Shown here piece by piece: positions 24,201 to 63,998 of a stretch of DNA of 64,000 nucleotides. Location of the stretch: positions 256,001 to 320,000 of the forward strand of contig OY969927.1 of the NCBI GenBank assembly GCA_963704655.1, read 5' to 3'. The DNA comes from an uncultured Candidatus Babeliaceae bacterium (lineage in GTDB: Bacteria > Babelota > Babeliae > Babelales > Babelaceae). The position numbers were made by a program, and so were the translations under genes. The notes below the pieces were generated by a model. It did not search any database, was not told where the DNA came from, and saw only the letters and a program-made list of their open reading frames with translations. The number at the start of each line of letters is the position of its first letter. The stretch's first letter is position 1.

Positions 24201-27200
24201 ACTTACAAGTTGGTGAACCGGTAGTTATTACCAGCAGTGGTCAACTTGGTGTGGGGTCATCTTTAAATCTTATTAATACTGCAACATCATGTGATTATGC
24301 TTTAACACTTGTGCTGCGTGATAGTACCGGAAGCTTCTCTGCAACTATGGTTACACTAACAGGTAACACCATGGTAAGTTACGGAACCAGCCCATGCGAC
24401 CCAACAGCATTTATCTTTGCACCATTACAACAAAACACACTCATGGGTGTAAATGCTAATAGCAACAGCCCACTTATTGGTTGGAACAACACTGCTTATG
24501 GATACCAAGCATTAACAAACAACTTAACCGGCTCAGATAACGTTGCAGTAGGCAATAACGCATTAAACAGCAGTTCAAACTTTACTGGTGTTCAACGCAG
24601 CATTGCTATCGGTTCACAAAGTATGCCAAATGTTGGCTCATCAACGGTAGATAATATTGCCATTGGTTACCAATCATTGGGCAATTTAGTAAGTGCTTTT
24701 GATACCTCTTACGGTACTCGAAATATTGCACTTGGCAACCAAGTGATGACCAATGCTCAAGGAAACTCTACCTGCATCGGTATCGGCTATCAAGCATTAC
24801 AAAATACTAATTACTCATCAGATAACATTGGCATAGGAACATCGGCATTGTCACAAAACAGTGGCTCAGCCTCAAATGCTCACATTGCTATTGGGTCAAA
24901 TGCGCTTGAAAGTTTTAATAGTACAAATCTTTCAGGTAATATTGCCATCGGTTATGGCGCAGCAAGTGCATTAACAACAAATACAGGAAGTGGCAGCAGC
25001 GATGCATGCATTATGATTGGTTACCAAGCAGGGGCAACAAACCCTGCCAGATCAACTGCATCAATCTATATTGGAAGTAATCTCAATGCGCCTGTTGCTG
25101 CAGAATTTGACACAATCCGCTTAGGTGCTTTTCCCTATAGCATCGCGCCGGCTGGTGTACCAGCGCATAACATTGCTATTGGTAATTCAGCGCTTTCAAG
25201 CCCAAGCCTTGGCGCTGCAAGCAACAATACCGCAATCGGCTACCAAGCGTTACAAAACAATACCGCAAACCAGCTTACTGCTGTTGGTTCTGGCGCATTA
25301 AGTGCAAACACTGGTGGGATTCAAAATACTGCCGTTGGTTATTATGCACTTAATCAGGTAACAACATCAACAGCAAATACCGCAGTTGGTTACCGTGCAT
25401 TACAAAATATTACCACACGTTTTGGTGGGCAAGTTGCGTTAGGAAGTTTAACGTTAACGTCACTTTCTGATGGCGGCCAAGGTAACACCGGTATTGGGTC
25501 AAGTGCATTTACCTTATTAACTACTGGTAGTATTAATACCGGGCTTGGTTTTAATGCGGGAAGTGGTTTAATTACCGGCACAGGAAACATTCTTATTGGC
25601 GCCTATACCGCGCAAGGGTTAACCTCAGGAGCAAATAATATTATCATCGGCCAGGGTGCAGTTGCAGCAGCATCAACAGCAAGTAATAATACTATTATCG
25701 GTACACTTGTAGGTGTTAATAGTACTTCAAGCAATAATGCTGCTGTTGGGTATCAAGCATTGCAAAATGATACCGCAGGAAACCAAGTTGCTGTTGGGTA
25801 CCAAGCAATGCAAAGTAATACAGCCGGTATACAGAATACTGCTGTTGGGTATCAAGCGCTTAATGCGAATACTACTGGAACATCGAATGTCGCGCTTGGC
25901 TATCAAGCTTTAGCAAATGCAAAAACTATTAACAACTTTGATAATATCGCCATCGGCGCGTTTACGCTTTCTGGTGCAAATATTTTAGGAGATAATATCG
26001 CAATTGGTGTTAACGCACTTTCAAATGCAAACTATAACCAAGGCCAGCAAATTGCTATCGGTTCTGGCGCATTAGCGGCAAATACAGGAGGTACTTATAA
26101 TAGTGCAGTTGGTTACCAAACATTAAATGCAAATACCACAGGAGTACAAAATACCGCTGTTGGTTACCAAGCATTGCAAAAAAATACCACTGGCTATGCA
26201 AATACAGCACTTGGTTATTATGCGTTAAATCAAAACACTATAGGTGATACAAATATGGCAATTGGTGGTCTAGCGCTTCAAAATGCGTCAGCTCAAAGTT
26301 ATAATACAGCAATTGGCTATAACACACTTATTGGTGCAAATATTTTAAGCTATAATGTTGCAATTGGTTCTAGTGCGCTTTCATCACCTAACAATACTCA
26401 AGGCCAGCAAACTGCTGTCGGTTATAGTGCATTACTAAATAATACTTCGGGTGCGAATAATACTGCTGTTGGTTTTCAGACATTATATGAAAATCAAACC
26501 GGTAGCGGAAATACTGCACTTGGTTTGCAGGCGTTATTTAAAGGAACTGCTAATTCAGATAATACTGCTGTAGGGTATTATGCTCTTTTTGGAAACAGCG
26601 GTACTCTTACTGCGGGCCAATTAACTGCAGTTGGTTCAGGAGCGTTGTATAATAATTCATCAGGCGGTCAGAATGTGGCAGTTGGCTATTATGCATTAAA
26701 CTCAAATACAACTGGTACGGCTAACGTTGCACTTGGTACTCTTGCCCTTGCAACAAATATCACCGGAACGGCTAACGTTGCACTTGGTTATAATGCTGGA
26801 GCAGGTGCTACTGGAAATGCCAACACTATCATCGGGTCCTCTGCTGGCTCGGGGGTTCTTTCGGGAAATAACATTATTGTTATTGGAAATGGCCTGGTCG
26901 GTGGTGCCACTCCATTTACAACATATATAGCTGGCATTTCTGGGGCAACGGCAAGTGGTGGCGTAGAGGTATATTGTAATACCAGCAGTCAACTTGGAAC
27001 TCTTAATTCTTCTAGACGTTATAAAGAAAATATTAAGGACCTAGGTAATTTTTCAGATAATATCTATAAATTACGTCCAGTACAATTTAATTACATAAGT
27101 GACCAAGAAAAGTGGTTTGAAGCTGGTTTAATAGCAGAAGAAGTAGTCGATATTTACCCTCAAATAATTGTTTATAAGGATGGTGAAATCGAAACGATAC

Positions 27201-27388
27201 GCTATAAACAGTTGTATATAATGATGCTTAATGAACAGCAAAAAGATCATTCGGTATTACATGAATATAAAAAACGCGTAGAAACACTCGAGACACAAAA
27301 TAATGAGTTTACGCAAACCATCACAACAATGCAGCAGCAAATTAATGATCTCCAGGATAAAATGAACAAACTTGGGCTGTTCCCTTGA
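15299..27388 (+). CDS. Giant secreted fibre/adhesin-like protein 3 (4029 aa) with LVIVD-like propeller insert and C-terminal Peptidase_S74
   Basis: Signal peptide, shared N-domain, about 800-aa A/S-X-X shaft, LRDSTGSF linkers, DVSNP/NISNP repeats, many NTAVGYQAL repeats, SSRRYK...AGLIAEEV, coiled coil. Confidence 0.9.
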   Translation: MKQYLYAAIAAVVLFVASLQAEITSLDKAYGVLQELEMFAQGDQLEASSDSVMLALDELIRYLESDTLLSANVRLDISKKINVLVKKINLQTRAPRLDAPEIHETTILNENYYPTRDLYLRNLLITGSLILNGQQIGGGGSVPSNLYVLKAGDTMTGDLTMADQHGIVFDDTNSGSITITAPAAVSPAGTNYTFELPINAGGNGQVLTTDGGNPAMLSWQPVTAIVTATIQLYGDVVGSTSATKVAFVCGVPACNIVQTYSTVLSATSANQCGTLVLRDSNCNFSANLITATVTNALLSQTALYATNSLLSVTSQYAQNAGSTNFAFTSSLAQYALTSLTSTSAQYATNSLLSVTSQYAANAGSTNFAFTSSLAQYALTALTSTSAQYATNALLSVTSQYAANAGSTNFAFTSSLAQYALTALTSTSAQYATNSLLSVTSQYAAVAGATNFAYTSSSALLSTSAQYANVAGFTNFALTASSALLSTTAQYAAVAGATNFAYTSSSALLSTSAQYANVAGFTNFALTASSALLSTTAQYAAVAGATNFAYTSSSALLSTSAQYANVAGFTNFALTASSALLSTTAQYAAVAGATNFAYTSSSALLSTSAQYANVAGFTNFALTASSALLSTTAQYAAVAGATNFAYTSSSALLSTSAQYANVAGFTNFALTASSALLSTTAQYAAVAGATNFAYTSSSALLSTSAQYANVAGFTNFALTASSALLSTTAQYAAVAGATNFAYTSSSALLSTSAQYANVAGFTNFALTASSALLSTTAQYAAVAGTTNFAYTSSSALLSTSAQYANVAGFTNFALTASSALLSTTAQYAAVAGATNFAFTSSLAQYALTALTSTSAQYATNSLLSVTSQYAANAGSTNFAFTSSLAQYALTALTSTSAQYATNSLLSVTSQYAANAGSTNFAFTSSLAQYALTALTSTSAQYATNSLLSVTSQYAQNAGSTNFAFTSSVAQYALTSLTSTSAQYATNALLSVTAQYAKNAGSTNFAYTSSSALYSTTAQYALTALTSTSAQYATNALLSVTSQYAATAGSTNFAYTSSSALYSTTAQYALTALISTSAQYATNALLSVTSQYAANAGSTNFAYTASSALYSTTAQYAQVANSANYICGVPACNLVNTYSQVLSGTSYDIPLKLVLRDSTGSFAATTVTLTGALRLQNANGNLTTLEAGAQSFAPVYTLILPTTIGGDNQVLTTDGNNPANLFWQPVSAITTSTILLYGDVTGSSTANRVTTICGVPACNLVNTYSFVLSGTSADIPLTLVLRDSTGSFAATTVTLTGALQLQNANGNLTAFQAGAQSFAPVYTLILPTSVGGDNQVLTTDGNNPANLSWQPVTAITTSTILLYGDVTGSSTANRVTTICGVPACNLVNTYSFVLSGTSADIPLTLVLRDSTGSFSATTITASSIIVDNQTLVVDPINHLVGIGTNQPALYPQGRLLERITPNIPSFSGIAPGSCSGDFINSSYIAQPSSIIGVNQVGIISINDPVNLNLVATINGGFPTQTRVTGTTLYVLNSAGFLSPRNSIARYDVSNPLDPVFVNEFNCLPFPGNIAVTSSNVYETDVLRGLFIYDSELDYLGSTTPFSAFSLAVSNDIALVGTLEGQLYAFNVSNPANIVPLGSLLFTNPVVDINIQGIYAFVSLATHNGIPGSVQIVNISNPNALTIANVLTTNLLSPIQTLIKNNILYVVDAVLNTINEYDITTITSPVFLTSYNNGTPLSSILSNSQNLYAIPTQGSLFALNPASEFLLTVTGDTLIGGILNLLPTGSGSGQIKIGGATVLHTFNGGTYVGPNAGNFSTINGIGNLESNNISEAQNSTAVGANSLANIISGFNNTAIGAQASQYLTNGNDNTAVGFATLLENNSGSQNTVVGSRALSGSDYLCTSTITVNDCTAVGFNALNVNNADQITAIGSGALQNNSTGLQNTALGYNALQGNIAGNTNTAVGHNSLNSAQNSSNNTVIGAESGTSSSLGSYNIYLGDSINFGGEGNTIRIGTQGVQAAAYMAGVTGNLQPSALPVTINSNGLLGVGNLITTSAIYFTGQLYGDVIGTQTATQVVTVCGVPACSLVNSYSKILLATSCDNASTLVERDETGSFEVTTITFTGNSLINYSSLGGCDTGQAFVFAPTNQNTIIGLGAGNNNILTGISNVALGYNALMSATAAFDNIAIGAFAGQSLVGGVDNIAIGTDALASTQQGFCNVAIGTSALMTATDVPTPKGLIPLQYNVAIGYQALMNTLAGEAAVSPFLPNKIFINTAVGSLALTTNISGNVNTAIGYSALTNNIVGSRNTAVGNSALSTVISGDGNTAIGSGANVYDPDAQNRTAIGSGAIAFVDNSIMLGSSAVQYIMPGGYNLTDLGYPPSNLLNNVQATQLNLYDSTDTIYAGITAPENYNYTYTLYMPVSQGFANQALMTDGNNPAQLSWGTIVTNSTQSCDIPSTLVLRDDTGSFAATTITLTGNSLINYSSLGACNTGSGFIFAPTNQNTLIGLGAGNSNILTGTNNTAFGYNALAAITSGYHNAAVGVGTLSALNYNSAYNTALGNFAGKHLLNGSYNVLLGYGAGAGFTNGNNNIAIGYQSLIQTATFCDNIAIGALALWNNSANQNLAIGSYALEYNTSGTGNSAIGYTALINSTTGNYNTAFGYLAGSNSLGSNNIYLGANVTGNSSDNGVIQIGNQGVQNAAYVAGIYNNLQMGEPVVITSSGQLGIGSYSNLINTATSCDNALTLVLRDSTGSFAATTITLTGNSLINYSSVGGCDTGQSFILAPTQGNTIIGLSTGTAITTGTNNIYLGANINKGNESGAIRIGNSNQTSAYVAGIYNNLQVGEPVVITSSGQLGIGSYSNLINTATSCDNILSLVLRDSTGSFAATTITLTGNSLINYSSVGGCDTGKSFILAPTQGNTIIGLNTGTAITTGTNNIYLGANINKGNESGAIRIGNSNQTAAYVAGIYNNLQVGEPVVITSSGQLGVGSSLNLINTATSCDYALTLVLRDSTGSFSATMVTLTGNTMVSYGTSPCDPTAFIFAPLQQNTLMGVNANSNSPLIGWNNTAYGYQALTNNLTGSDNVAVGNNALNSSSNFTGVQRSIAIGSQSMPNVGSSTVDNIAIGYQSLGNLVSAFDTSYGTRNIALGNQVMTNAQGNSTCIGIGYQALQNTNYSSDNIGIGTSALSQNSGSASNAHIAIGSNALESFNSTNLSGNIAIGYGAASALTTNTGSGSSDACIMIGYQAGATNPARSTASIYIGSNLNAPVAAEFDTIRLGAFPYSIAPAGVPAHNIAIGNSALSSPSLGAASNNTAIGYQALQNNTANQLTAVGSGALSANTGGIQNTAVGYYALNQVTTSTANTAVGYRALQNITTRFGGQVALGSLTLTSLSDGGQGNTGIGSSAFTLLTTGSINTGLGFNAGSGLITGTGNILIGAYTAQGLTSGANNIIIGQGAVAAASTASNNTIIGTLVGVNSTSSNNAAVGYQALQNDTAGNQVAVGYQAMQSNTAGIQNTAVGYQALNANTTGTSNVALGYQALANAKTINNFDNIAIGAFTLSGANILGDNIAIGVNALSNANYNQGQQIAIGSGALAANTGGTYNSAVGYQTLNANTTGVQNTAVGYQALQKNTTGYANTALGYYALNQNTIGDTNMAIGGLALQNASAQSYNTAIGYNTLIGANILSYNVAIGSSALSSPNNTQGQQTAVGYSALLNNTSGANNTAVGFQTLYENQTGSGNTALGLQALFKGTANSDNTAVGYYALFGNSGTLTAGQLTAVGSGALYNNSSGGQNVAVGYYALNSNTTGTANVALGTLALATNITGTANVALGYNAGAGATGNANTIIGSSAGSGVLSGNNIIVIGNGLVGGATPFTTYIAGISGATASGGVEVYCNTSSQLGTLNSSRRYKENIKDLGNFSDNIYKLRPVQFNYISDQEKWFEAGLIAEEVVDIYPQIIVYKDGEIETIRYKQLYIMMLNEQQKDHSVLHEYKKRVETLETQNNEFTQTITTMQQQINDLQDKMNKLGLFP
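16256..18667 (+). repeat. Composite coding tandem array: 3x126 bp, 8x144 bp, 4x126 bp, 2x144 bp plus a partial unit
   Basis: Unit boundaries at 16256, 16634, 17786, 18290, 18578; every unit starts AGxTNFA. Confidence 0.9.
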
Positions 27389-27468
27389 CCTTACAAGAGG
27401 CGCATGTTAGAGAAACTATAAGTAATGAAATCGTTGAAGAAATTGAAATTTTAAAAAAGGATTTGTAT

Positions 27469-30400
27469 ATGAAGCAGATATTGTACACACTTTTGTTTTT
27501 TGGTTACGTAACGGCTAATATGGCAGAGCAGGAAAATGCTCTTGTCCCCCTGTATCGAATTGATGAAGATACCCAAGAAATCGATCTTGAACCATTTGGC
27601 TATTTTGTTATGGGTAACCGGTTTTGCACCACGGCACCCTATTATACCTTATTGTTACCACCAGCAATAGGTTTGCCCAATCAAGTTCTTGGTCTTGAAA
27701 ACAGTACTTCGGGGCAAATGACGTGGTTGACAACTGTGACCAGCTCAAATCAGCTCAATTTGATTTATAGCGCAACTTCATGTGATGTTCCATTGACGCT
27801 CATATTGCGTGACAACAATGGCAGCTTTGTAGCAACCACTATTACGCTTACGGGCGATAGTTTAATCAATTATGGTTCTGGCCCATGCACCGGTCAAAGC
27901 TTTATTCTTGCACCAACGCAAGGTAATACCATTATTGGTTTAAATACCGGCACTGCTATAACAACCGGTACGAATAATATTTATCTTGGTGCCAATATTA
28001 ATAATGGTAATGAAGGCGGCGCTATCCGTATAGGTAAACAAGGCGCGCAAATTGCTGCATATATTGCCGGTATTTATAATAACTTACAAGTTGGTGAACC
28101 GGTAGTTGTTACCAGCAGCGGCCAACTTGGCGTGGGTTCATATTCAAATCTCATTAACACCGCAACATCATGTGACAATGCATTAACACTTGTGCTGCGC
28201 GACAGCACCGGCAGCTTTGCAGCAACTACAATCACACTCACGGGAAACAGTTTAATTAATTACAGCACAATTGGCGGATGCGATAAGGGTGAAGGCTTTA
28301 TCTTTGCGCCAACAAATCAAAATACTCTTATCGGTTTGAATGCGGGGAATAATAATACGCTTACCGGTACAAGTAATATAGCACTTGGTTATGATGCTCT
28401 TGCAAGTATCACCGCAGGTTTTGACAATATCGCCATTGGTGCATTTGCTGGACAAAGTCTTATAGGTGGAGAGGGTGAAAATAGCTCTTATATTTTTAAT
28501 GGCGCAGCAGATAATATCGCTATTGGTGCAGGCGCATTAGCATCAACGCAACAAGGTTTTTCTAATGTTGCTATAGGAACTTCGGCATTGATGACCGGAA
28601 CAGATTTGGTGGTAAATGGTGGCATCTTTGCTGGAACTTATCCGATGCAATATAATGTTGCCATTGGGTATCAAGCGTCGATGAATGCAATTGCTTATCA
28701 GTTTTTTGGAGATTCAATTCTTGACCCACAACCAGAACCAATTATTAATACTGCAATAGGAAGTTTTGCCTTAACAAATAATATATCGGGCAATGTTAAT
28801 ACCGCCGTTGGCAACAGCGCATTAAGCGCTAATGTAATTGGAAGTTTTAATACCGCAGTGGGCGATTCGGCATTAAGTGCAAATGTTGATGCAGGAGATA
28901 ATACAGCGGTTGGTGTTTCGGCACTATTAACGGTTACTTCTGGTGGTAACAATACCGCAATTGGAGCAAACGCAGATGTTAATGATCAGTATGCACAAAA
29001 CAGAACTGTTATAGGCGCAGGGGCTTCTGGTACCGTTGATAACAGTGTCATGCTCGGTAATAGAGATATACAGTATATTATGCCAGGCGGCCTTGATAAC
29101 AGTACAGATCTTGGCTATGCACCAAGTAATCTTTTCAATAATGTGCAGGCAAAACAGCTTAATATTTATGACAGCAGTGATACAAACTATGCTGGCATTA
29201 ATGCGTACCCTTTAGGATATGCGTATACGTACACCTTACAAATGCCTATTAACCAGGGTTCTGAAAATCAGATGCTTTTTACCGATGGTAATAACCCAGC
29301 GCAACTTTATTGGTCAACAGTTCCAACTCCTACACTACTTACCCATGCAACAAGTGCCGATGTTCCAAATACACTCGTATTGCGTGATGGAACAGGGTCT
29401 TTTGATACCTATACCATCTCACTTGATTGCAGTTTAAAGCTCCCAGCAACAACGGCAACCTGTGGACAAATACAGCTTAATAACCAACCATTTATGCATG
29501 CTTATGGCACACAAAATGCCTTTTTAGGAACCAATGCAGGAAATTTTATATCCACAGGAGCATACAATATCGGTATTGGATATCAAGCTCTTTTTAATAA
29601 CACCAATGGGCAATCTAATGTCGCCATTGGCGCAAGTGCGCTTCAGGCAAACACCAGTGGGCAATCTAATGTCGCCATTGGCGTAAGTGCGCTTCAGGCA
29701 AACATCAGTGGTAATGAAAATATTGCCATTGGCGCAAGTGCGCTTCAAACTAACACAAATGGGTTCGCAAATATTGCCATTGGTGCATCTGCACTTTTAA
29801 GTAATACCAATGGCTCAAATAATATTGCATTAGGTTTGGCAGCGCTTTCAAATAATAATGGATATCAAAATATTGCCATTGGCACCGCCAGTCTTGAAAA
29901 TAACAGCAGCGGAAATGATAATATAGCAATTGGCAATACCAGCCTTCTTGCCAATATAACAGGAAGTGAACAAGTTGCTATTGGCTCAAATGCGCTCCAC
30001 AACAATACCACGGGGATAAATAATGTTGCTATTGGTTATCAAACTCTTCAAACAAATACTTCTGGATCAAATAATACAGCTTTAGGGTATGAAGCAAATG
30101 TTGGTAGCAAAAACCTTACTAATGCAACAGCAATTGGTGCACAAGCAATTGTCAATGCAAGCAACACTATTGTTCTTGGCAACAGTAGCGTAACTAATAT
30201 ACTTCCTGGAAACGATAGAACCGTTGATTTTGGTAGCAGCGCCGTTCGCTTAAATACTCTACATGCATTAACTGACCGGTTATATGACACCAATAATAAT
30301 TATGCGGCACTTACAGCGCCAATTGCAAATTATTCTCCAGGGTCTTATACGCTTCAACTTCCACTTTATCAAGGTTCTGCTAATCAAGTATTAAGCACAG

Positions 30401-33400
30401 ACGGTAATACCCCTGCGCAACTTTCATGGGTAACAACACTCACTAATAGTGCACAACTTAATTTGCTCTATACCGCAACTTCATGCGACAACGCATTGGC
30501 ACTTGTGCTGCGCGACAGCACCGGCAGCTTTGCAGCAACAACTATTACGCTCACGGGCAACAGTTTAATTAATTATAGCTCTGTTGGCGGATGCGATACT
30601 GGCCAAAGCTTTATTCTTGCACCAACGCAAGGTAATACCATTATTGGTTTAAATACCGGCACTGCTATAACAACCGGTACGAATAATATTTATCTTGGTG
30701 CCAATATCAATAATGGCAATGAAGGCGGCGCTATCCGTATAGGTAAACAAGGCGCGCAAATTGCTGCATATATTGCCGGTATTTATAATAACTTACAAGT
30801 GGGTGAACCGGTGGTTGTTACTAGCAGCGGCCAACTTGGTGTGGGTTCATACTCAAATCTCATTAACACGGCAACATCATGTGACAATATATTGTCGCTG
30901 GTTCTGCGTGACAGCACGGGCAGCTTTGTAGCAACAACTATTACGCTCACGGGCAACAGTTTGATTAATTATAGCTCTGTTGGCGGATGCGACAGCGGCG
31001 CCGGCTTTGTCTTTGCGCCGACACATCAAAACACTATTATTGGTCTTAATGCAGGTAATAGTAATAACTTAACTGGAACATCAAATGTTGCACTTGGTTA
31101 TCAAGCGCTTGCAAACAATATCACTGGGTATAATAACACTGCACTCGGGTTTGGCACGCTTGCAACCAATACTAATAAGAGCAACAACGTTGCTATCGGT
31201 ACCAACGCAATGGCCTCAGCTAATCCGTTGTTTGGAAACTCTGTTGCAATTGGCTATCAAGCACTTGCTCATGATCTTTCTGGCTACAACGTTGCCGTTG
31301 GCTCACAAGCATTAAGTGCAAATACTAGCGGATATGAAAATACAGCAGTTGGCACATTTGCTTTACAAGACAATAACTCAGGGACAGGAAACAGCGCATT
31401 TGGTGCTTCTGCGTTATCAGCAAATACATCCGGCGGTTCAAATACCGCAATTGGCACTTTGGCACTCAATGCTAATATGATTGGTAATTATAATACTGCA
31501 GTTGGTTCGCAAGCAATGTACGCAACAACAGCTGGTTATTATAATACCGCGCTTGGAATTAATGCGATGAACAGCGCACAGGCTTCTCATGACGTTGCTA
31601 TTGGATATAATTCATTAGGACTAGATAGTGCAGGGTTTAATGTAGCTGTTGGAGAGGCAACTTTATCTAACATAATAACGGGAACTTACAATGTTGCACT
31701 TGGTTATGAAGCTGGCGTAAACGCAGGAACAAGCACTTCAAATAGTATTTATATTGCAAATCAAGGTAATTCAACTGATAGTAACGTTACGTATATCGGT
31801 ACACAAGGAACGCAAACTGCTGCATATGTTGCGGGCATTTACAATAACTTACAAGTGGGTGAACCGGTGGTTGTTACCAGCAGCGGCCAACTTGGCATAG
31901 GTTCGTACTCAAATCTTATTAACACGGCAACATCATGTGACAATGCATTAACACTCGTTCTACGCGACAGCACCGGCAGCTTTGCAGCAACAACCGTCAC
32001 ACTCACCGGTAACAGTTTAATAAATTACAGCTCTATTGGTGGTTGTGGTATTGGACAAGGCTTTGTCTGGGCGCCAACAAACCAAAACACTATTATCGGG
32101 TTAGGTGCAGGTAATAATAATGTCCTTACAGGAACATCAAACATTGCTCTTGGCTACCAAGCACTTGCAAATGCAAAAACTATCAATAACTTTGACAATA
32201 TCGCTATCGGTGCATTTACTCTTACAGCAACTGCTGTATTGGGTGACAATATAGCTATCGGTGTAAATGCGCTTTCAAGTGCAAACTATTCTGGTGGACA
32301 GCAGATTGCTATAGGCACAAATAATTTAGCATTAAATACAACAGGGACAGCAAATATTGCAATAGGCTACGAGGTGCTTGATGCAAATACCGTTGGTTCA
32401 TCAAATGTTGGTGTTGGATTTATGGCTTTAGGAAACAATGTGAGTGGTAATGACAACACAGCAATTGGAACGCTAGCACTGTATAATAATACGACAAGTC
32501 AATTAACTGCCGTCGGTTCTGGAGCATTATATAACAATACTTCTGGTAGTGATAATGTTGCCATTGGATATTACGCATTAAATGCAAATACAACCGGCCA
32601 AAACAATGTTGCAGTAGGCAATCAAGCATTATCGGTTAGCGTTAATAATAACGGCAATACCGCAGTTGGAACAAATGCGTTACAAAATAATATCACTTTG
32701 CGCCTTACGGCAGTCGGTGCTAACGCATTGCAACATAATACTTCCGGCATTCAAAATGTCGCTGTTGGGTATAATGCATTAACTGCAAATACTACCGGCA
32801 CGAATAACGTAGCAGTTGGTTACAACGCGCTTTCAGAAAATTTAATCGGAACGTCTAATATCGCCATTGGTTATCAAGCACTTACAGCAAATACCGCCGG
32901 CGATGACAATATCGGTATCGGAACAAATGCATTAGTTAATGCACAAGGAAATAGAAATGTGGCAATGGGCTCCAGTGCATTCCAGACGATAAGTGGAAAT
33001 ACAGCATCAGATAACGTTGCTTTAGGTTATTATGCGCTTATTGTCTCGACTACAGGTCAAAGCGTTGCTATCGGCTCTGGTGCGTTAGCCGCTAATACTT
33101 TTGGAACTCAAAATACCGCTGTTGGCTATTATGCGCTTAATGCGAATATTACTGGAACATCGAATGTCGCGCTTGGCTATCAAGCTTTAGCAAATGCTAA
33201 AACCATAAACAACTTTGATAATATCGCAATTGGCGCATTTACACTTTCGGGAACCGCTGTTCTTGGTGATAATATTGCAATAGGTGTAAATGCGCTTTCA
33301 AATGCAAACTATAACCAAGCTAATCAGATAGCAATTGGTTCAGGCGCATTGCAAAATAACACATCTGGCTTTCAGAATACTGCTGTTGGGTATCAAGCAC

Positions 33401-52732: not shown

Positions 52733-52768
52733 ATGCGGACAAGTAGGTATTGAAATAAAGTTTTATGT

Positions 52769-53000: not shown

Positions 53001-53012
53001 TTAGCGAAATTA

Positions 53013-53525: not shown

Positions 53526-53587
53526 TTTTCATGCTGCGGTATGGTATACTAATTGTAACGTAAAGCTATTTAAAAATTGGATTATCT

Positions 53588-55357: not shown

Positions 55358-55432
55358 GCTGGAGAGCGGTGTTACCATGGGCGTGTCTCAGTTCTTCAAG
55401 GATGGATATTTTAGTAGTCGTGAGTAATTTAG

Positions 55433-56056
55433 TTAATCGTGAATTAATTTATAAAACTTTTCAGCCTCAGCTGCTGGGTTAGCGGCAGAAGTTATCTCCT
55501 TGCCAATAACTATTGCAGCAGGGTTAAGTTCGATAATTGTAGGTAAGGTTTCAGGTGAGATATTGCCCGAAATATATACCGGCAATGGTGTGTTACCCTT
55601 AACCATATCCCAGGTTTCCAAAAAGGTAAGTTGAGAAGAATCTTGTGTTGGCATAGGCAATAATAATGCATCAACACCAAAACTTTTAGCTTCGAGTGCA
55701 GATTGCCCTAATGAGCTTGCATCGATAAGATCAAGCATCACCTTTTTGCCGCGTTCATGTGCAGCATTGCATGCGCTATGTATCACATTGCGACGCGTGC
55801 CTGCAAGAACTGTTACCCAGTCTGCTCCAGCATCTGAACATAAAAGAGTTGCCTCTTTTGCGCGATCGGCGATTTTTACATCAGCAAGAATCGTTTTGTG
55901 GGGAAACTGCTGTTTAAAGCGTGTTACTGCCTGCATGCCGTTTTTGTAGATAAGCAGAGAGCCGACCTCAAAAATATCAGCGTATTTTTCTATGCTCTGC
56001 GCGATTGAAAGGGCGGTTTCAAGATCTGTAAGATCAAATGCAATGTGCAACTTCAT
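55433..56056 (-). CDS. 3-hexulose-6-phosphate synthase / OMP decarboxylase superfamily protein
   Basis: IAFD, IFEVGS, ILADVKIAD, AGADWVTVL, SGNI, IVIGKEIT. Confidence 0.85.
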   Translation of the reverse strand: MKLHIAFDLTDLETALSIAQSIEKYADIFEVGSLLIYKNGMQAVTRFKQQFPHKTILADVKIADRAKEATLLCSDAGADWVTVLAGTRRNVIHSACNAAHERGKKVMLDLIDASSLGQSALEAKSFGVDALLLPMPTQDSSQLTFLETWDMVKGNTPLPVYISGNISPETLPTIIELNPAAIVIGKEITSAANPAAEAEKFYKLIHD

Positions 56057-56140
56057 ATCTTAATAATCCTTTAGTGGTACCTGAAAATGGTCGAATACTT
56101 CAAAAAAAGTATAGCAGCAACTAGAATAATTATCTATTAT

Positions 56141-56872
56141 TTATGCTTTAATTGCTTGCGCAAAAGATTGCGGTTCAACCTTTTTCTCAATAACCAATGG
56201 CGCAAAAAAGCGGTTAATCTTTAAAAATTTTAAAACGCAAAATGGCGTATCGATAGATGTATGCACAAAGATATCGGGTAATATGAAATTCGGCCCAGGG
56301 ACACTTTCATGGGTACCTTGTGTAATTTCTATATCTTTTGGTTTTGCCATAATAATAAGTGCGTGACTGTCTATCTGTGATTTTGCCGGACGTTCAAGCT
56401 GTGTGATATTCCAGTACCATTTTTTATGCTGTTCATCATGCTTAAGATTATAACGGTAAAATGTGGCATTAACTTCTTCTGGAACTTCAAAATGGTGCAC
56501 CGTGTTCCCCTGGAACATTACCGGGTATATCTGGCTTGTTACCACTACCGTTAAAGAATTACTGCTTTCTTTATTGGGCAACAGTATTTCGCCCTGATAA
56601 TCGGTATATGTTATATACCCTACATAATTAACATAAACTCCCTGTACTAAGGGACTTGTTAAATGGCGCTGTAATATCATGTTGCTGATATCGGCATGCG
56701 AGCTGATAAGTCCAGTTAATTTGTCTGCGGGGAACTTTTTAGCGCATGCGGGGTTGCTGGCGCAGGGCACCATAAAAAAGCTGATAACATGTGGCGTTGG
56801 CGCAGATTGCCCATAGGTTGTAAGCGGTATAAAACTACTTAACCAAAAAAGAAGAAATAAGATTTTTTTCAT
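56141..56872 (-). CDS. Hypothetical exported protein
   Basis: Signal peptide MKKILFLLFWLSSFIPLTTYG; about 243 aa; no family recognised. Confidence 0.8.
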   Translation of the reverse strand: MKKILFLLFWLSSFIPLTTYGQSAPTPHVISFFMVPCASNPACAKKFPADKLTGLISSHADISNMILQRHLTSPLVQGVYVNYVGYITYTDYQGEILLPNKESSNSLTVVVTSQIYPVMFQGNTVHHFEVPEEVNATFYRYNLKHDEQHKKWYWNITQLERPAKSQIDSHALIIMAKPKDIEITQGTHESVPGPNFILPDIFVHTSIDTPFCVLKFLKINRFFAPLVIEKKVEPQSFAQAIKA

Positions 56873-57016
56873 TGACACTTCCCCCCAGAAATAGACTATT
56901 TGCTTTCAGTTTACTTAATTACAATGGCAGATTGCAACTTTTAAATAAGATCCCACCCATTTTTATTAATTACCAAATGTTAACTAGACTTAACATATAG
57001 TTCAACTAAGTGTTAA

Positions 57017-57311
57017 TTAACGTGAGTTCGACTAAAATAAGCCATACTTAAAGCCTCTTATTTCCCGTAGTGTCATGGAGCACTATGTGCTCTACTTTCG
57101 GGCAGTGACCCGGAATCTATCTATTAAAGTAAATTTCGATAATAATATTGATCTATTCGATTTTTTTTTACAAAGTAAGATAGACCCCGACTCCAGCCGT
57201 CGCTTATCCAGGCCTTCCTATCGAAGTACGGGGGTGACACCTTAATAATTCGTAATTAAACTTTGAAACAACAATATTTTCTGCTATTTTTTATCATCGA
57301 ACTCATGTTAA
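57017..57311. mobile_element. MITE-like element with IS982-like terminal inverted repeats, containing a degenerate REP doublet
   Basis: TTAACGTGAGTTCGA ... TCGAACTCATGTTAA (14/15 inverted match); no ORF; left end duplicated at 44523; no clear target duplication. Confidence 0.65.
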
Positions 57312-57316
57312 CTTAA

Positions 57317-58771
57317 TTACTCACCAGTTCTTTTTGCCTGAACCTTTCCCGTTCCAAAAAGCCTTTGGAATAGAGTTTTTTCCTTTTTCTCTTCTTCCTC
57401 TTGCTCTTGCTCAGGCTCAAGGTTTGCTTGTGAAGATGATGCTGATGTTTTTGCCGGCTTACGCTCAGGTTCATGGCCAGCGAGTCTCGATGTAACACGT
57501 TCATAACTCTGAGTTGAAGCAATGTTTTTGCGACTTTTAATTATTGCATTTTTTTGTGCTTGACTCATAAGACCTTCAAGTATAGCCTTTTCAAATTCAT
57601 CCCCAGAAAGCCTTAAGGCCTTTTGAGCATGACCAATTGCAAGAGCATATTCCTCTTTATTAAAATATATCTTTGCTAATTCAGACTCTACATAAAAGTT
57701 CTTATCAGTTTTTAATGTAGCATCTTTAAGTATAAGAAACACTTCGTCCTCAATGTCTTTTTGTGAGCGTTGTGACTTATTTTCACGTATTTCGCGAACT
57801 CTTATTGCATAAGATTCATTTTTAAGTGCACCAGACAATTCCAGAGCCTGTGTTTTTAAATGTTCAGGTGCCAATGGTATTGCATAATCTATATATTTTT
57901 TTGCTAAATCCAAGTTCCCGTTTTCATAATATAATTTTGCTAAATTATACTCTACATTATAAAGGGAATGGTTAGTTCTTTTACTCGCTTGCAAAAGCAA
58001 CTGCAAAGCTTCATTCTTTAAGCTAAGGCGCTTTGTTACATCATTTTCTTGCTCAGCATTACCTAGAATGATTAATGCTTGCGATGCAAGATCAAGAGCC
58101 TCTTTATCCCAAATCTCTTTGGCTTTTCCTTTGCCACGAGCAGCTTCTTTGGCTAATTGAGCACGATATAGCTTTTCTTTGCTTGCTAACCATTTTTTAT
58201 GTTTTGGCTCCAAGTCTAAAGAATAACGCGTACCAGATAAATTTTTATATTTCCCATCTTTTATAATATCAAGTAAAATTTGTGCAAATGTAGTAGTATC
58301 CTCTTTTTGCAACTGTGCAAGCAGAAAAAGCTCATCATAACATTTAACTATTTTGAAAGAATATACTTTTACACTTTCTGGATCTTGCTCTTGGCCTTTT
58401 TGATAATATTCCTTGACAGCTTCAGCTGCTTTAATTTTTGCAATATACCCAGGAATACTATTTGTGTGCGCCTCAGCAGCCTGCTTTAACGTTTGCAAGG
58501 CCTCAGTTTTTCTATTTGCTTTATTAAGAGCTAAAGCATTTTCATAAAGAAGCTCAGGCTCTTGCTTTTGTGCTGGTATAAACATACGGTTACCACTGCT
58601 TGAACTGGCAACAGTTTTTTGTGTTACTACAGGCATTCGGCTACTACTACTACTACTACTTGAACCTGCTTGACGATAATCACCTAAAAGATCTAAATCG
58701 AACTCACCGGCAAAAGCTGGTGCACTAGCATATAACGCTAGCAGATATACTTTATTTTTCATATTCTTCAT
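57317..58771 (-). CDS. Secreted TPR-like helical repeat protein, candidate effector
   Basis: GGAGAG RBS, signal peptide, Ser tract, YNLAKLYYENGNLDLAKKYIDYAI and ELAKIYFNKEEYALAIGHAQKAL TPR-like helices, charged tail. Confidence 0.8.
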   Translation of the reverse strand: MKNMKNKVYLLALYASAPAFAGEFDLDLLGDYRQAGSSSSSSSSRMPVVTQKTVASSSSGNRMFIPAQKQEPELLYENALALNKANRKTEALQTLKQAAEAHTNSIPGYIAKIKAAEAVKEYYQKGQEQDPESVKVYSFKIVKCYDELFLLAQLQKEDTTTFAQILLDIIKDGKYKNLSGTRYSLDLEPKHKKWLASKEKLYRAQLAKEAARGKGKAKEIWDKEALDLASQALIILGNAEQENDVTKRLSLKNEALQLLLQASKRTNHSLYNVEYNLAKLYYENGNLDLAKKYIDYAIPLAPEHLKTQALELSGALKNESYAIRVREIRENKSQRSQKDIEDEVFLILKDATLKTDKNFYVESELAKIYFNKEEYALAIGHAQKALRLSGDEFEKAILEGLMSQAQKNAIIKSRKNIASTQSYERVTSRLAGHEPERKPAKTSASSSQANLEPEQEQEEEEKKEKTLFQRLFGTGKVQAKRTGE

Positions 58772-58904
58772 AACACTCTCCTTAATGGCCATATAATATC
58801 CTATTTATTCACTCTATTTCTCTATTTTTTTCAGCTTAAACAAAGCGTAAACGCAGAGTCAACAATTTCAAATATATATTTATAGAAATTCCCCTAATAC
58901 CTTT

Positions 58905-61900
58905 CTATGCCACCAACTTCTCTATTTTTGTTTGAAGATCAGCAATTTGCTCCTGCATAGTCGCAATTGTTTCCTTATAACATATTTCTAACGTCTCTAA
59001 ACGTTTTCTATAGTCAAGTAACATTGCACGATCTTTTTGCAGCTCATTAAGCATCATCAAAGGGATATACTGATATTGCACTGTTTGAGGCTGTCCATAA
59101 GCATCCTTAATAACAATGCCAGGATAGATTTCTTCAACCTCTTCAGCAATAAGACCATATTCTAGATGATCTTCATAACCATCCCAAATATAATTAAATG
59201 TTACCGGGCGTAGCTTATGCAGATCTTCTGTAATATTATCCATATCTTGAATATTTTTCTTAACACGTCGCGTTGATGCTGTTGTACCAAGCTTTCCATT
59301 AGACCCTATGCTAACTGCTGCTCCCCCTGTGGTATAGGTCTGTCCAAAGATACCTTGAATATAACAAGCACCCGAGCCCGCACCATACAGAGCTCCTATA
59401 CGAATCGTATCACTTTCAGCTGTGGATGTTGTTATTGCACCAGCATATACGTTGGCACCAATATAAATATTACCCGTACCTGTCAATAAATTTGTTCCAG
59501 CATTATAACCAATAGCAACATTATTTGTGCCAGTAGTTAAAGCAGCAAGTGCATCGGCGCCAATTGCGGTGTTATTGCCCCCATAGGTGATCGTGCCACT
59601 CAATTTAGTAAGTGCATAACATCCGACAGCAACGTTATTGACACTTGCAGTATTTGCAGCAAGTGTTTGGTGCCCAATAGCAACGTTAGATGTGCCGGTG
59701 GTGTTTGCATTTAATGCATAATACCCAACAGCGGTATTTTGAATGCCAGTAGTAGCATTTGCTAATGCACCTGAACCAACTGCGGTGAGCTGACTTGCTG
59801 TACTATTTGCCAGAGCATTTGTACCAATTGCTGTATTATCATTGCCACTAATATTAATGGTTAATGCTTCATTTCCAAGCGCCACATTGTTTGACCCAAT
59901 GGTATTTGCATCTAATACTTGGTAACCGATACCAACGTTTGCCGTGCCTGTGGTATTAAATTGTAACACGCCGGTTCCAATACCAGTTTGCTGGCCGCCA
60001 GTATAGTTTGCGCTTGATAATGCGTTATAACCAATAGCAATATTATCACCAAGTATACTTGCTCCGGAAAGTGCAAATGCGCCGATGGCAATATTGTCAA
60101 AGTTATTTATAGTTTTAGCATTTGCAAGTGCTTGATAACCAATTGCAACGTTTGATGTTCCGGTTGTATTTGCATTAAGCGCATAATACCCCTCAGCATG
60201 ATTTTGTACACCACTCGTGTTATTTTGCAATGCACCAGTACCAATAGCAATCTGCTGACCCTTATTATAGTTTGCGCTTGATAATGCGTTATAACCAATT
60301 GCTATATTATCACCAAGCACTGCAGTTCCGGTTAATGTAAATGCGCCAATGGCAATATTGTCAAAGTTATTAATTGTTCTTGCATTTGCAAGCGCTTGGT
60401 AACCAATTGCAATATTTGAAGTTCCGGTGGTATTTAAGTTTAATGCATTGAAACCAACTGCGGTATTTTGAATGCCAGTAGTAGCATTTGCTAATGCACC
60501 TGAACCAACTGCGGTGAGCCGACTTGCGGTGCTATTTGCCAGAGCATTTGTACCAATTGCCGTATTATCATTGCCACTAATATTAATGGTTAATGCTTCA
60601 TTTCCAAGCGCCACATTGTTTGACCCAATGGTATTTGCATCTAATACTTGGTAACCGATACCAACGTTTGCCGTGCCAGTGGTGTTAAACTGTAACACGC
60701 CCGTCCCAATAGCAGTCTGCTGGCCCTTTGTGTAGTTTGCGCTTGATAATGCGTTATAACCAATTGCGATATTATCACCTAAAATAGATGCCCCAGAAAG
60801 CGTATTTGCACCGATAGCAATATTATCAAAGTTATTTGCAGTGTTAGCATTTGCAAGCGCTTGGTAACCAAGTGCGGTGTTATTGAACCCAGTAATATTA
60901 GCATTTAATGCATAATAACCAACGGCAACATTTTGTGCGCCGGTGGTATTATTGAATAATGCACCAGAACCTATTCCAACCAACGAGCTTGTTTGGTTAG
61001 TTGATAAAGCCTGGTTACCAACTGCGGTATTGTCTGAACCAACAGCCGCATTGTTAAGTGTTAAATTTCCGATGGCAGTATTATTGTTTGAAAATTGTGA
61101 TAATGACAGCGCATTGAATCCAACAGCAGTATTATTAGACCCTGATGTATTTGATTGTAAGGTACTATAACCCACGCCAACGTTTTGAGTGCCTAAGGTA
61201 TTATATTGTAAAGCTCCAGACCCCACAGCAGTAAGGGCATTGCCAACTGAAGCCGTGAGAAGAGCATTATAACCAACTGCAGTGTTATTAAAGCCAATTA
61301 TGTTACCAGAAAGTGAATAAGAACCTATAGCTGTATTGCTATTGCCAGTTGTGTTACCAGAAAGTGAATAGTAACCAACAGCTGTGTTGCTTGCGCCCGT
61401 ATTATTGCTGCCCATACTCGAATTACCAACAGCCACATTGAACGCTGAATTGCCAAAAACAAATGCATTATAACCAATAGCAACGTTTCCGTATGAAAAA
61501 GATCCATTCTGTAAGGTATTTGAGCCTATAGCGACATTTTCACCAGCTTGAATTATATTACTTAATGCATTGGAGCCTATAGCAATATTATTTGCCCCGC
61601 TAGGTATACCAAGAAACGGTAGGTTATAGTTTAACTTACTCAGTGCATAAGCGCCTATTGCAATATTATTTACCCCACTTGTATTTGTTTGTAATGCATC
61701 ATAACCAATTGCGATGTTTCCAGTACCTGTAGTATTTGCCTGTAACGCGCCCGTTCCAATTGCTATCTGCTGCCCGCCGGTATAACCCGACGCAGAAAGC
61801 GCATTTGTTCCAACAGCGATGTTATCACCTAAAATAGATGCGCCAGAAAGCGTATTTGCCCCAATTGCAATATTGTCAAAATTATTAATACCTGCAGCAT

Positions 61901-63998
61901 TTGCTAATGCTTGATAGCCTAATGCAACGTTTGATGTGCCGGTTGTATTTGAGCCAAGAGCATTATACCCAAGAGCAGTATTTTGAATACCTGTAGTATT
62001 CGAACCAAGCGCATAATACCCAACCGCTGTTAAATTATTTGCACGATTGCTATAAAGACTTTGGTACCCAACTCCAACGTTATTACTTACATTCTTGGCA
62101 GCACTAGCGCCATTTCCAAATAATGCACTAGTACCAAGAGCAACATTATAAGATCCAGAAGTATTTGTTCCTAGCGAAGAGATACCCATAGCAACGTTAT
62201 TAACGCCTGTAGTGTTATTAGTCATGCTACTGAAACCTATTGCAATATTAAAACCTATAGTATCGCTTGGTAATGTAAGCGCCCCGATTGCTATATCTTG
62301 ACCATTTATTGGCGTGGCATTCTGCATTGCTAAACTGCCAATAGCAATATTAGCTCCTTGACCATTATCTTTTTGCAATGCACTGTATCCTATAGCAATA
62401 TCTGAAGCAGCAGCATTTAATGGTGTAGCATTTTGCATTGCACCAGAACCAATCGCCACATTTTGACCAATTGCACCATTGAAAGTCGCTAATGCATTAT
62501 TGCCAAGTGCAACATTATCACTAGATGTCATATTAGATTTTGCAGCTTGATATCCTACTGCAGTATTATTTTTTCCCGTTGTATTTGCATTAAGTGCTTG
62601 ATTACCTAATGCGACATTTAATGTGCCGGTGAGGGTATTATTATTTCCTGCATTCAAGCCGATAATGGTATTACCATATGTTGGCGCAAAGACAAAGCCC
62701 TGACCAATATTGCAACCGCCGACAGAACTGTAATTAATTAAACTATTACCGGTGAGTGTGACTGTTGTTGCTTCAAAGCTGCCGGTGCTATCACGTAAAA
62801 TGAGTGTTAATGCGGTGTCACATGATGTTGCCGTGTTAATAAGATTTGAGTATGAGCCTATGCCAAGTTGGCCGCTGCTGGTAACAACCACCGGTTCACC
62901 CACTTGTAAGTTATTGTAAATGCCAGCAACATATGCAGCAGTTTGCGTTCCTTGTGTACCGATATACGTAACGTTACTATCAGTTGAATTACCTTGATTT
63001 GCAATATAAATACTATTTGAAGTGCTTGTTCCTGCGTTTACGCCAGCTTCATAACCAAGTGCAACATTGTAAGTTCCCGTTATTATGTTAGATAAAGTTG
63101 CCTCCCCAACAGCTACATTAAACCCTGCACTATCTAGTCCTAATGAATTATATCCAATAGCAACGTCATGAGAAGCCTGTGCGCTGTTCATCGCATTAAT
63201 TCCAAGCGCGGTATTATAATAACCAGCTGTTGTTGCGTACATTGCTTGCGAACCAACTGCAGTATTATAATTACCAATCATATTAGCATTGAGTGCCAAA
63301 GTGCCAATTGCGGTATTTGAACCGCCGGATGTATTTGCTGATAACGCAAAAGCACCAAATGCGCTGTTTCCTAACCCTGAGTTATTGTCTTGTAAAGCAA
63401 ATGTGCCAACTGCTGTATTATCATATCCGGTAGTATTTGCACTTAATGCTTGTGAGCCAACGGCAACGTTGTAGCCAGAGCTATCATGAGCAAGTGCTTG
63501 ATAGCCAATTGCAACAGAGTTTCCAAAATATGGATTAGCCGAGGCCATTGCGTTGGTACCGATAGCAACGTTGTTGCTCTTATTAGTATTGGTTGCAAGC
63601 GTGCCAAACCCGAGTGCAGTGTTATTATACCCAGTGATATTGTTTGCAAGCGCTTGATAACCAAGTGCAACATTTGATGTTCCAGTTAAGTTATTACTAT
63701 TGCCTGCTCCAAGACCAATAAGGGTATTTTGTTTTGTTGGTGCCCAGACAAAACCAGCGCCTGTATCGCATCCGCCAACAGAGCTATAATTGATTAAGCT
63801 GTTGCCCGTGAGTGTGATAGTGGTTGCTGCAAAGCTGCCCGTGCTGTCGCGCAGCACAAGTGCTAATGCATTGTCACATGATGTTGCGGTGTTAATAAGA
63901 TTTGAATATGATCCCACACCAAGTTGTCCGTTGCTGGTAATAACTACCGGTTCACCCACTTGTAAGTTATTGTAAATGCCCGCAACATACGTTTGGGT
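58905..63998 (-). CDS. Giant fibre/adhesin-like protein 6 with C-terminal Peptidase_S74 (5' end beyond window)
   Basis: Frame open to window edge (TQTYVAGIYNNLQVGEP); LRDSTGSF linkers; NxAxG repeats; STRRVK...YGLIAEEV. Confidence 0.9.
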   Translation of the reverse strand, partial: TQTYVAGIYNNLQVGEPVVITSNGQLGVGSYSNLINTATSCDNALALVLRDSTGSFAATTITLTGNSLINYSSVGGCDTGAGFVWAPTKQNTLIGLGAGNSNNLTGTSNVALGYQALANNITGYNNTALGFGTLATNTNKSNNVAIGTNAMASANPYFGNSVAIGYQALAHDSSGYNVAVGSQALSANTTGYDNTAVGTFALQDNNSGLGNSAFGAFALSANTSGGSNTAIGTLALNANMIGNYNTAVGSQAMYATTAGYYNTALGINAMNSAQASHDVAIGYNSLGLDSAGFNVAVGEATLSNIITGTYNVALGYEAGVNAGTSTSNSIYIANQGNSTDSNVTYIGTQGTQTAAYVAGIYNNLQVGEPVVVTSSGQLGIGSYSNLINTATSCDTALTLILRDSTGSFEATTVTLTGNSLINYSSVGGCNIGQGFVFAPTYGNTIIGLNAGNNNTLTGTLNVALGNQALNANTTGKNNTAVGYQAAKSNMTSSDNVALGNNALATFNGAIGQNVAIGSGAMQNATPLNAAASDIAIGYSALQKDNGQGANIAIGSLAMQNATPINGQDIAIGALTLPSDTIGFNIAIGFSSMTNNTTGVNNVAMGISSLGTNTSGSYNVALGTSALFGNGASAAKNVSNNVGVGYQSLYSNRANNLTAVGYYALGSNTTGIQNTALGYNALGSNTTGTSNVALGYQALANAAGINNFDNIAIGANTLSGASILGDNIAVGTNALSASGYTGGQQIAIGTGALQANTTGTGNIAIGYDALQTNTSGVNNIAIGAYALSKLNYNLPFLGIPSGANNIAIGSNALSNIIQAGENVAIGSNTLQNGSFSYGNVAIGYNAFVFGNSAFNVAVGNSSMGSNNTGASNTAVGYYSLSGNTTGNSNTAIGSYSLSGNIIGFNNTAVGYNALLTASVGNALTAVGSGALQYNTLGTQNVGVGYSTLQSNTSGSNNTAVGFNALSLSQFSNNNTAIGNLTLNNAAVGSDNTAVGNQALSTNQTSSLVGIGSGALFNNTTGAQNVAVGYYALNANITGFNNTALGYQALANANTANNFDNIAIGANTLSGASILGDNIAIGYNALSSANYTKGQQTAIGTGVLQFNTTGTANVGIGYQVLDANTIGSNNVALGNEALTINISGNDNTAIGTNALANSTASRLTAVGSGALANATTGIQNTAVGFNALNLNTTGTSNIAIGYQALANARTINNFDNIAIGAFTLTGTAVLGDNIAIGYNALSSANYNKGQQIAIGTGALQNNTSGVQNHAEGYYALNANTTGTSNVAIGYQALANAKTINNFDNIAIGAFALSGASILGDNIAIGYNALSSANYTGGQQTGIGTGVLQFNTTGTANVGIGYQVLDANTIGSNNVALGNEALTINISGNDNTAIGTNALANSTASQLTAVGSGALANATTGIQNTAVGYYALNANTTGTSNVAIGHQTLAANTASVNNVAVGCYALTKLSGTITYGGNNTAIGADALAALTTGTNNVAIGYNAGTNLLTGTGNIYIGANVYAGAITTSTAESDTIRIGALYGAGSGACYIQGIFGQTYTTGGAAVSIGSNGKLGTTASTRRVKKNIQDMDNITEDLHKLRPVTFNYIWDGYEDHLEYGLIAEEVEEIYPGIVIKDAYGQPQTVQYQYIPLMMLNELQKDRAMLLDYRKRLETLEICYKETIATMQEQIADLQTKIEKLVA

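Follow-up and report, generated by a model that had tools for sequence, protein, structure and literature searches.

How did a set of giant, phage-fibre-like genes in a small bacterial genome come to share stretches of nearly the same DNA within sequences that are otherwise highly diverged, and can the DNA between those stretches that lie in inverted orientation be turned around? The question is raised by a 64,000-nucleotide (nt) stretch of DNA, here called the window, which spans positions 256,001-320,000 of contig OY969927.1 (assembly GCA_963704655.1, Candidatus Babeliaceae bacterium). Six very large open reading frames (ORFs), g1 to g6, were found in it, with lengths of 1,640-4,779 codons and all of them open. 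The bacterium belongs to the Dependentiae (Babeliaceae), a widespread lineage that parasitises amoebae and other protists and is for the most part uncultured, and to our knowledge the means by which its members attach to or enter their hosts are not known. The explanation which we consider likely as a whole is that the six genes belong to a family with about nine members, which encode giant trimeric fibres that are exported by Sec to the cell surface and are built like phage tail fibres. Judging from sequence comparison, their shared stretches are most probably the result of repeated non-reciprocal copying (gene conversion) among old, highly diverged fibre paralogues.

Shared tracts and their origin

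The initial annotation of the window had listed four matches between genes 3, 4, 5 and 6 (our g3, g4, g5 and g6), and all four are present where it placed them. The g4 segment 31057-31942 matches the reverse complement of 62816-63701 in g6 with 98.2% ungapped identity (16 mismatches in 886 nt, longest exact run 243 nt), and g5 39498-40123 matches the reverse complement of 61261-61886 in g6 with 96.0% (25 mismatches in 626 nt). The g3 segment 25364-25884 and the g4 segment 33415-33935 share 91.6% (44 mismatches in 521 nt), and g3 25544-25884 shares 86.5% over 341 nt with g5 41265-41605, both again ungapped. The modules had been called near-identical, which is appropriate for the g4/g6 and g5/g6 pairs, whereas the g3/g4 pair is only similar. 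A common beginning of g3 and g5 of about 500 bp had also been reported; it extends over 573 nt at 93.7% identity and opens 73 nt upstream of the ATG. The inverted matches were recovered both by repeat finding and by self-BLAST, and they are far beyond chance, because the longest exact inverted match expected by chance in 64 kb is, by simple reasoning, about 16 nt.

A strict genome-wide megablast was used to list the tracts, T1 to T9 (Table 1), in the whole genome, which is a single contig of 1,298,077 nt (1.3 Mb) rated 96% complete. Cores that were known from the initial annotation are parts of longer tracts, one of 1,299 nt with 93.8% identity and one of 992 nt with 92.2%, and at least five tracts (T2, T5, T7, T8 and T9) come in addition to it. 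Fibre genes are involved in 181 of the 256 repeat high-scoring segment pairs (HSPs) that megablast reported genome-wide.

The synonymous sites carry the argument for copying. Synonymous divergence (dS, by NG86) in the tract cores is 0.033 for T1, 0.051 for T2 and 0.114 for T3, and the other tracts have 0.108 (T4), 0.171 (T5), 0.267 (T6) and 0.432 (T7), while outside the tracts it is 0.60 and 0.83 in the shoulders of T1 and 1.3-3.7, or saturated and not computable, in 200-codon flanks. Third-position identity in identical codons is likewise 0.92-1.00 in the cores and 0.2-0.5 outside. The ratio of nonsynonymous to synonymous divergence within the tracts is 0.14-0.49. At the tract edges nucleotide identity climbs from 0.35-0.55 to 0.95-1.00 and drops again within about 100 nt. 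Conservation by purifying selection is ruled out by the identity at synonymous sites; since selection at the protein level cannot hold such sites, the tracts are copies made at different times.

Segments next to the tracts had been described as unrelated, which did not hold: in protein-guided codon alignments they are diverged homologues, with 41-52% nucleotide and 17-60% amino acid identity. Amino acid identity between g4 and the last ~2,700 aa of g6, with which it is colinear, is 43%. As g4 and g6 are colinear and the flanks align as diverged homologues, the tracts replace homologous sequence and are not new modules. The best paralogue also switches along each gene (in g5, for example, it is g3, then g6, g4 and again g3), an incongruence of the kind implied by the mosaic that was initially proposed. 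Together with the sharp edges and the contrast between a dS of 0.03-0.43 in the tracts and above 1.3 in the flanks, this switching bears out the proposal of gene conversion among paralogues.

The proposed mechanism is that homologous recombination would copy 0.3-1.3-kb stretches between paralogues without crossover, in direct as well as inverted orientation, and that this would leave tracts of graded age within otherwise saturated sequence. The pathway would be ectopic gene conversion, presumably RecA-dependent repair of breaks; RecA, MutS and MutL are encoded in the genome. The architecture fits general homologous recombination with non-crossover outcomes, and not a shufflon, a silent-cassette system or a diversity-generating retroelement (DGR). 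Similar blocks of 88-96% identity between fibre paralogues were found in two of three other Babeliaceae genomes sampled (seven in G003, five in G009 and none at the G014 loci). Relatives in metagenome contigs were limited to three loci with 38-44% identity, and in genome contigs to one locus with 42% in a Dependentiae metagenome-assembled genome (MAG). In the five same-genus genomes used for comparison (G001-G005; this genome is G000), matches to the g4 tract are confined to lengths of 32-250 nt, with 67-88% identity.

Several points weigh against this explanation. That exchange is ongoing is suggested by the graded dS only, in one strain. MutS and MutL should suppress exchange between junction elements (described below) that are 78-87% identical, a range which is alike within and between genes. 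No preferred recombination site emerged: junction domains were considered for this role and rejected, 8 of 28 tract ends lying inside them, which is no enrichment against the 22-29% of gene length that they occupy. For single tracts, insertion of a module instead of replacement keeps some probability. The runs behind the short contigs discussed below may include the source sample of the assembly, which makes their independence uncertain. Surface location and host binding of the fibres are predictions from sequence.

Architecture of the fibre proteins

All six giant ORFs match Peptidase_S74 (PF13884) at the C-terminus, with 34-82 bits against a cut-off of 22, and there are 12 such matches genome-wide. 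The domain is opened by an S-x4-K motif, in the form S[ST][RK][RK]xK, in all eight family members examined. It has been described that the catalytic Ser and Lys of S74 are five residues apart in SDxxxK (PMC10769870, in the part of that paper considered here); the position of the Asp is taken by Ser or Thr in these fibres. Products of g4 and g5 match PHROG tail-spike and virion-structural families with E values of 1e-83 to 1e-177, and there is a weak sequence match (E 2e-5) to a long tail fibre distal subunit, PDB 6f45. Neither a YadA-type anchor nor Hep_Hag was found by Pfam in the six proteins, whose C-terminus is S74, and still some relatives bear the JGI name "trimeric autotransporter adhesin", while close ones are labelled [quoted passage not shown]. 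At E<=1e-30, 827 of the candidates scored are relatives of g4, from Limnobacter, Flavobacteria, Patescibacteria and others. Among the other genomes of the family, 15 of 24 have S74 matches, and among those from other families of the order 2 of 16 do.

N-termini have short hydrophobic stretches which, judged by eye, are leader-like, and they are of two types, one common to g1, g2, g3, g5 and the distant paralogue gB and another found in g4 and g6. The true start of g4 is likely the ATG at 27466, ahead of the hydrophobic leader. In the tract proteins the shaft consists of 17-residue repeats of the NTAVGxxALxxNTxGxx type, interrupted by a junction domain of ~110 aa (ATSxDxxxTLVLRDxxGSFxA, with invariant R, D and F) that is present in 2-12 copies per gene. 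This domain has no Pfam match at E<=0.05, and its AlphaFold2 model, built from 26 paralogous copies, reached a mean pLDDT of only 51.6. The T1 module has no sequence match in PDB. When the last 330 aa of g5 were modelled as three copies, the score was 0.94 and that of the best control 0.00, with a partner pLDDT of 90; at least 97% of contacts were the same between runs, and contacts recur every ~17 residues. The mark used for this score was reached by 21 of 30 solved pairs and by none of 23 single chains, and the g5 model may have passed it through likeness to solved S74 trimers. The fibre plan would then be an N-terminal leader or docking region, a shaft of 17-residue beta-helix repeats with junction domains, and a C-terminal self-cleaving Peptidase_S74 chaperone. 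The proteins are probably trimeric and at the surface, and a role in attachment to, or uptake by, a host cell may be expected.

Upstream of g1, g2, g3 and g5 there is a promoter-like motif made of CTTGAC, a spacer of ~17 nt and CATGTTAATAAC, followed by a ribosome-binding-like site AAGAGAG (5150-5229, 10190-10259, 15226-15298 and 36981-37052, respectively). A similar layout precedes g4 (27400-27465) and, beyond the window, g6, which suggests that each fibre gene has its own, similar promoter.

Some features are peculiar to single members of the family. Each of g1 and g2 (5230-15182) has one internal and one terminal Peptidase_S74 match and contains about 15 tandem 108-nt (36-aa) repeats of 80-93% identity (6031-7842 and 11055-12866), to which a spurious Pfam match to Plasmodium_HRP is due. 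Two further fibre-like genes, g7a and g8, lie at 340599-354502 of the genome (window coordinates 84.6-98.5 k, beyond the window); they are without S74 and share a different C-terminal domain that ends in ...LDYxxYxYxxxSxR.

Inversion and other explanations

Between g4 or g5 on one side and g6 on the other, tracts T1, T2 and T3 form inverted repeats that are in frame and 0.85-1.3 kb long, with arms 20.4-30.6 kb apart. A crossover between g4 or g5 and g6 would invert 20-31 kb and swap gene ends, and the interval with its essential genes would survive. The initial suggestion that the intervening DNA could invert therefore stands as far as geometry and reading frame are concerned, but there is no sign of activity, no recombinase lies within 60 kb and the arms have essential genes between them. 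What can be asked is whether reciprocal crossovers between inverted paralogues have, rarely and on an evolutionary time scale, inverted the intervening DNA and swapped gene ends without being regulated, which would be compatible with gene conversion.

The comparison with congeners gives some indication of it. SpoIID adjoins the GT2 end of the interval between g5 and g6 in G001, G002 and G005. In G004, contig C26 is colinear with our genome up to window position 5149, just after SpoIID, beyond which come a plus-strand fibre gene of ~4,470 aa, the interval running backwards (orf245...GT2) and, on the minus strand, a fibre gene represented by its 3' end. The interval and the fibre genes flanking it are thus inverted relative to SpoIID in one of the four congeners that have both on one contig (G001, G002, G004 and G005), and this is the order that an inversion would be expected to produce if its breakpoints lay within or next to the outer fibre genes. 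Fibre gene positions also vary among congeners: G002 (contig C43) has none at either border of the interval, i.e. empty sites, and in G001 (contig C86) a fibre gene sits between tRNA-Met and the PgsA-like gene. However, G004 is a 66%-complete MAG with many frameshifts in which a misjoin within repetitive fibre DNA is possible, its second breakpoint lies off the contig, and no chimerism has been demonstrated for its giant gene, the segment-wise best hits of which are scattered across several paralogues. G003 keeps the same convergent fibre genes around the interval as our genome, whatever its orientation relative to SpoIID. Rare inversion across fibre genes on evolutionary time is in our opinion plausible, possible rather than probable.

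A more ambitious explanation takes the array as an organised diversification system for host attachment, in which g6 and the tandem g1-g5 would be mutual donors and shaft, leader and chaperone would be reassorted around paralogue-specific tips. Convergent placement around essential genes would then have the effect that crossovers only invert and never delete, and exchange would be tolerated. If this were true, rare inversions such as the one in a single congener would swap whole C-terminal halves and change host range. The tracts that were exchanged belong to the shaft repeats, to the N-terminal leader and to the S74 chaperone. Ahead of the S74 cleavage motif, a stretch of 300 aa is paralogue-specific, with best-HSP identities of 28-50% among g3-g6 and exceptions only for g1/g2 (69%) and g6/g7 (65%), and for this reason the presumed binding end is mostly not exchanged. 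The initial interpretation of the fibres as combinatorial adhesins is not borne out by this distribution, and the organised system seems unlikely to us.

It was also considered that the blocks are recent insertions of duplicated modules, by segmental duplication, and not replacements. The fibres are modular with a varying number of modules, g6 looks like ~2,000 other residues to which a g4-like sequence was added, and internal tandem duplications of 95-99% identity exist in g3, g5, g6 and gB. On the other hand, g4 runs colinear with the C-terminal part of g6 through both T2 and T1, their junction copies at matching positions are mutual best hits (85.4-86.7%), and flanks on both sides of the tracts align as diverged homologues, all of which makes insertion quite improbable as a general explanation.

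Programmed inversion by a recombinase, in the manner of a shufflon, of Gin/Min or of Type I hsdS, would switch fibre C-termini within a population. In its favour, the inverted repeats lie within coding sequences that have opposite orientations and specify a specificity-type protein, and phage tail fibre genes are a known class of its targets (PMC9881135, in the part considered). Yet tyrosine recombinases (PF00589) were detected only at 389 kb and 530 kb of the genome and serine recombinases (PF00239) only at 840 kb, so none is within 60 kb of the cluster, nor was one found among the 19 other ORFs of the window that were scanned. The arms enclose SerRS, SecD and DNA ligase at a distance greater than the 15 kb or less covered by the published survey (PMC9881135, same part), they are 92-98% identical over about 1 kb and not short exact sites, and each tract is a patch with divergence on both sides. 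As there is no recombinase or reverse transcriptase nearby and all of the genes look expressible, a programmed switch is unsupported, and we regard it as very unlikely.

The possibility of an assembly artefact was examined with Logan contigs from four metagenome runs (~3x depth, contigs of 150-380 nt), none of which spans an arm; the reported joints lie in repeats and have 20-26 nt on either side, and some parts are uncovered. Contigs of runs X1, X2 and X3 on the g4 tract carry exactly the g6-diagnostic letters at 31653, 31833, 31902 and 31905, one X3 contig on the g5 tract carries g6-diagnostic letters at 39917-40036, and other contigs have no differences from g4 over diagnostic sites and the left edge of the tract (30976-31279). 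Both paralogous versions therefore exist outside this assembly. Homogenisation of paralogous repeats by misassembly or polishing is a usual error in repeats, and this is a single-contig genome with an assembly history that is not known, but it is hardly credible, as the copies are distinguished by 16 and 25 mismatches, contigs of several runs show either version with its diagnostic letters as well as the g4-specific flank, and open frames are kept in all genes.

Two further systems were rejected. A DGR is excluded by the lack of a reverse transcriptase (PF00078) in the 96%-complete genome, and a silent-cassette system by the fact that all six ORFs are complete and possess a start, a leader and, upstream, a promoter-like motif.

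Comparison with described systems

The closest described system is, on the parts of the publication considered, the S74 subgroup of the MAT (mosaic adhesive trimer) superfamily of Bdellovibrio bacteriovorus, which has 21 members, 13 of them with S74 (Caulton et al. 2024, PMC10769870). As far as those parts go, both are multi-copy families of a host-dependent bacterium and not of a phage, and both would have a signal peptide followed by a conserved N-terminal region, which in MAT proteins is a beta-rich domain of ~130 aa homologous among members. They further have in common a beta-helical shaft as in the fibres of phages T5 and K1F, trimeric in MAT and predicted to be so here, a C-terminal S74 chaperone/protease with a Ser...Lys motif and a proposed role in recognising the cell to be invaded. 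The Babeliaceae proteins are 2-5 times longer (up to 4,779 aa), and the word mosaic refers in Bdellovibrio to domains, near-identical DNA tracts or gene conversion not being described in the parts of that paper considered (PMC10769870), where recombination comes up in the Methods only. Other differences are that the Babeliaceae fibres have the recurring junction domain without a Pfam match, that two of them possess an extra internal S74, and that the host bacterium is here a parasite of eukaryotes. It is known that phage tail fibre genes (Mu, P1, P2, T-even) evolve as mosaics by recombination. They resemble our genes in architecture, as the PHROG tail-spike matches show, and in block-wise exchange of segments, but theirs takes place between phage genomes, and here paralogues of one chromosome are involved, some of them inverted across essential genes.

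Silent-cassette antigenic variation is known from Neisseria pilE/pilS, Borrelia vlsE, Anaplasma msp2 and Mycoplasma genitalium MgPa. Non-reciprocal copying between paralogous surface-protein sequences in a small genome is common to these systems and the fibres. However, the former have one expression site, promoterless donors and high-frequency switching, whereas the fibres are six full genes with promoter-like motif, start and leader, and the dS of their tracts is spread over 0.03-0.43. Programmed inversions share with the present case, according to the part of the survey considered (Milman et al. 2023, PMC9881135), the inverted repeats in opposed coding sequences and the tail fibre targets; they differ in that the fibres have no nearby recombinase, 20-31 kb with essential genes between the repeats, and long imperfect arms.

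No description of S74 fibre families in Dependentiae was found in the literature searched, and the words fiber, fibr-, adhes- and attachment are absent from the passages of the Chromulinavorax paper that were searched.

Locus content and other records of the strain

The features of the locus are collected in Table 1. The interval between g5 and g6 contains GT2, TatD, SerRS, HemN-like, SecD, tRNA-Leu, tRNA-Met, PgsA-like, ATP-dependent DNA ligase, PyrF and a TPR protein. Apart from the fibre genes, the ORFs of the window have housekeeping functions (SpoIID, SerRS, SecD, ATP-dependent ligase and PyrF are among them), and the locus is therefore cellular and not a prophage. Intergenic GC-rich hairpin-like elements of 30-50 nt were observed at 51141-51190 and about 52974-53009, and copies with 90-100% identity occur on many contigs in each of the five congeneric genomes.

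Table 1. Fibre genes, housekeeping interval and shared tracts, in window coordinates.
Feature	Position	Strand	Description
g1, fibre gene	5230..10191	+	1,653 aa; signal-peptide-like N-terminus; two Peptidase_S74 matches
g2, fibre gene	10260..15182	+	1,640 aa; 72% aa identity to g1; two S74 matches
g3, fibre gene	15299..27388	+	4,029 aa; C-terminal S74
g4, fibre gene	27385..35394	+	2,669 aa counted from TTG
g5, fibre gene	37053..42941	+	1,962 aa; C-terminal S74
g6, fibre gene	58905..64000	-	3' third of the gene; full gene reaches window coordinate 73244, 4,779 aa
Housekeeping interval	43065..58792		Between convergent g5 and g6
T1 arm in g4	30781..32079	+	1,299 nt, 93.8% to g6; core 31057-31942
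T1 arm in g6	62679..63977	-	Inverted partner of 30781-32079
T2 arm in g4	28033..28886	+	854 nt, 91.7% to g6; core 28360-28809 at 97%
T2 arm in g6	65293-66146	inverted	Beyond the window
T3 arm in g5	39498..40485	+	992 nt, 92.2% to g6; core 39498-40123
T3 arm in g6	60896..61886	-	Inverted partner of 39498-40485
T4 arm in g3	15226..15798	+	573 nt, 93.7% to g5; promoter-like region and first ~167 codons
T4 arm in g5	36981..37549	+	Partner of 15226-15798
T5 arm in g3	26921..27250	+	S74 domain region, 333 nt, 94.3% to g5
T5 arm in g5	42492..42824	+	Partner of 26921-27250
T6 arm in g3	25359..25884	+	526 nt, 91.4% to g4 33410-33935; 86.4% to g5 41268-41620
T6 arm in g4	33410..33935	+	Partner of 25359-25884
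T7 arm in g3	23492..24009	+	521 nt, 90.2% to g4 30472-30992
T8 arm in g3	18632..18978	+	347 nt, 90.5% to g5 38721-39067
T9, g6 and gB			491 nt, 90.6%; gB 490 kb away

For window positions 27385-42941, contigs identical to this strain were found at ~3x in the runs of two studies, the labels of which (marine, soil and freshwater sediment metagenome) are oddly diverse for a single strain. Proteins exactly equal to g3 and g5 have been recorded on three contigs, the longest of which has 1,307,222 nt and is ~9 kb longer than our genome; the species has thus been assembled more than once, and the fibre region could differ between assemblies. With the start codons used here, g1, g2 and g4 have no exact entry in the protein collection, and g4 did not come up in its own search, from which nothing is concluded.

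Biological meaning

Gene conversion is a familiar, textbook mode in the evolution of surface-protein families, and what is new is the host group. About 56 kb of the 64-kb window and further loci in the 1.3-Mb genome encode phage-like fibres that exchange DNA. Such exchange accounts for the breaks that MAGs of this group have at these loci. The fibre genes are prime candidates for host-recognition factors.

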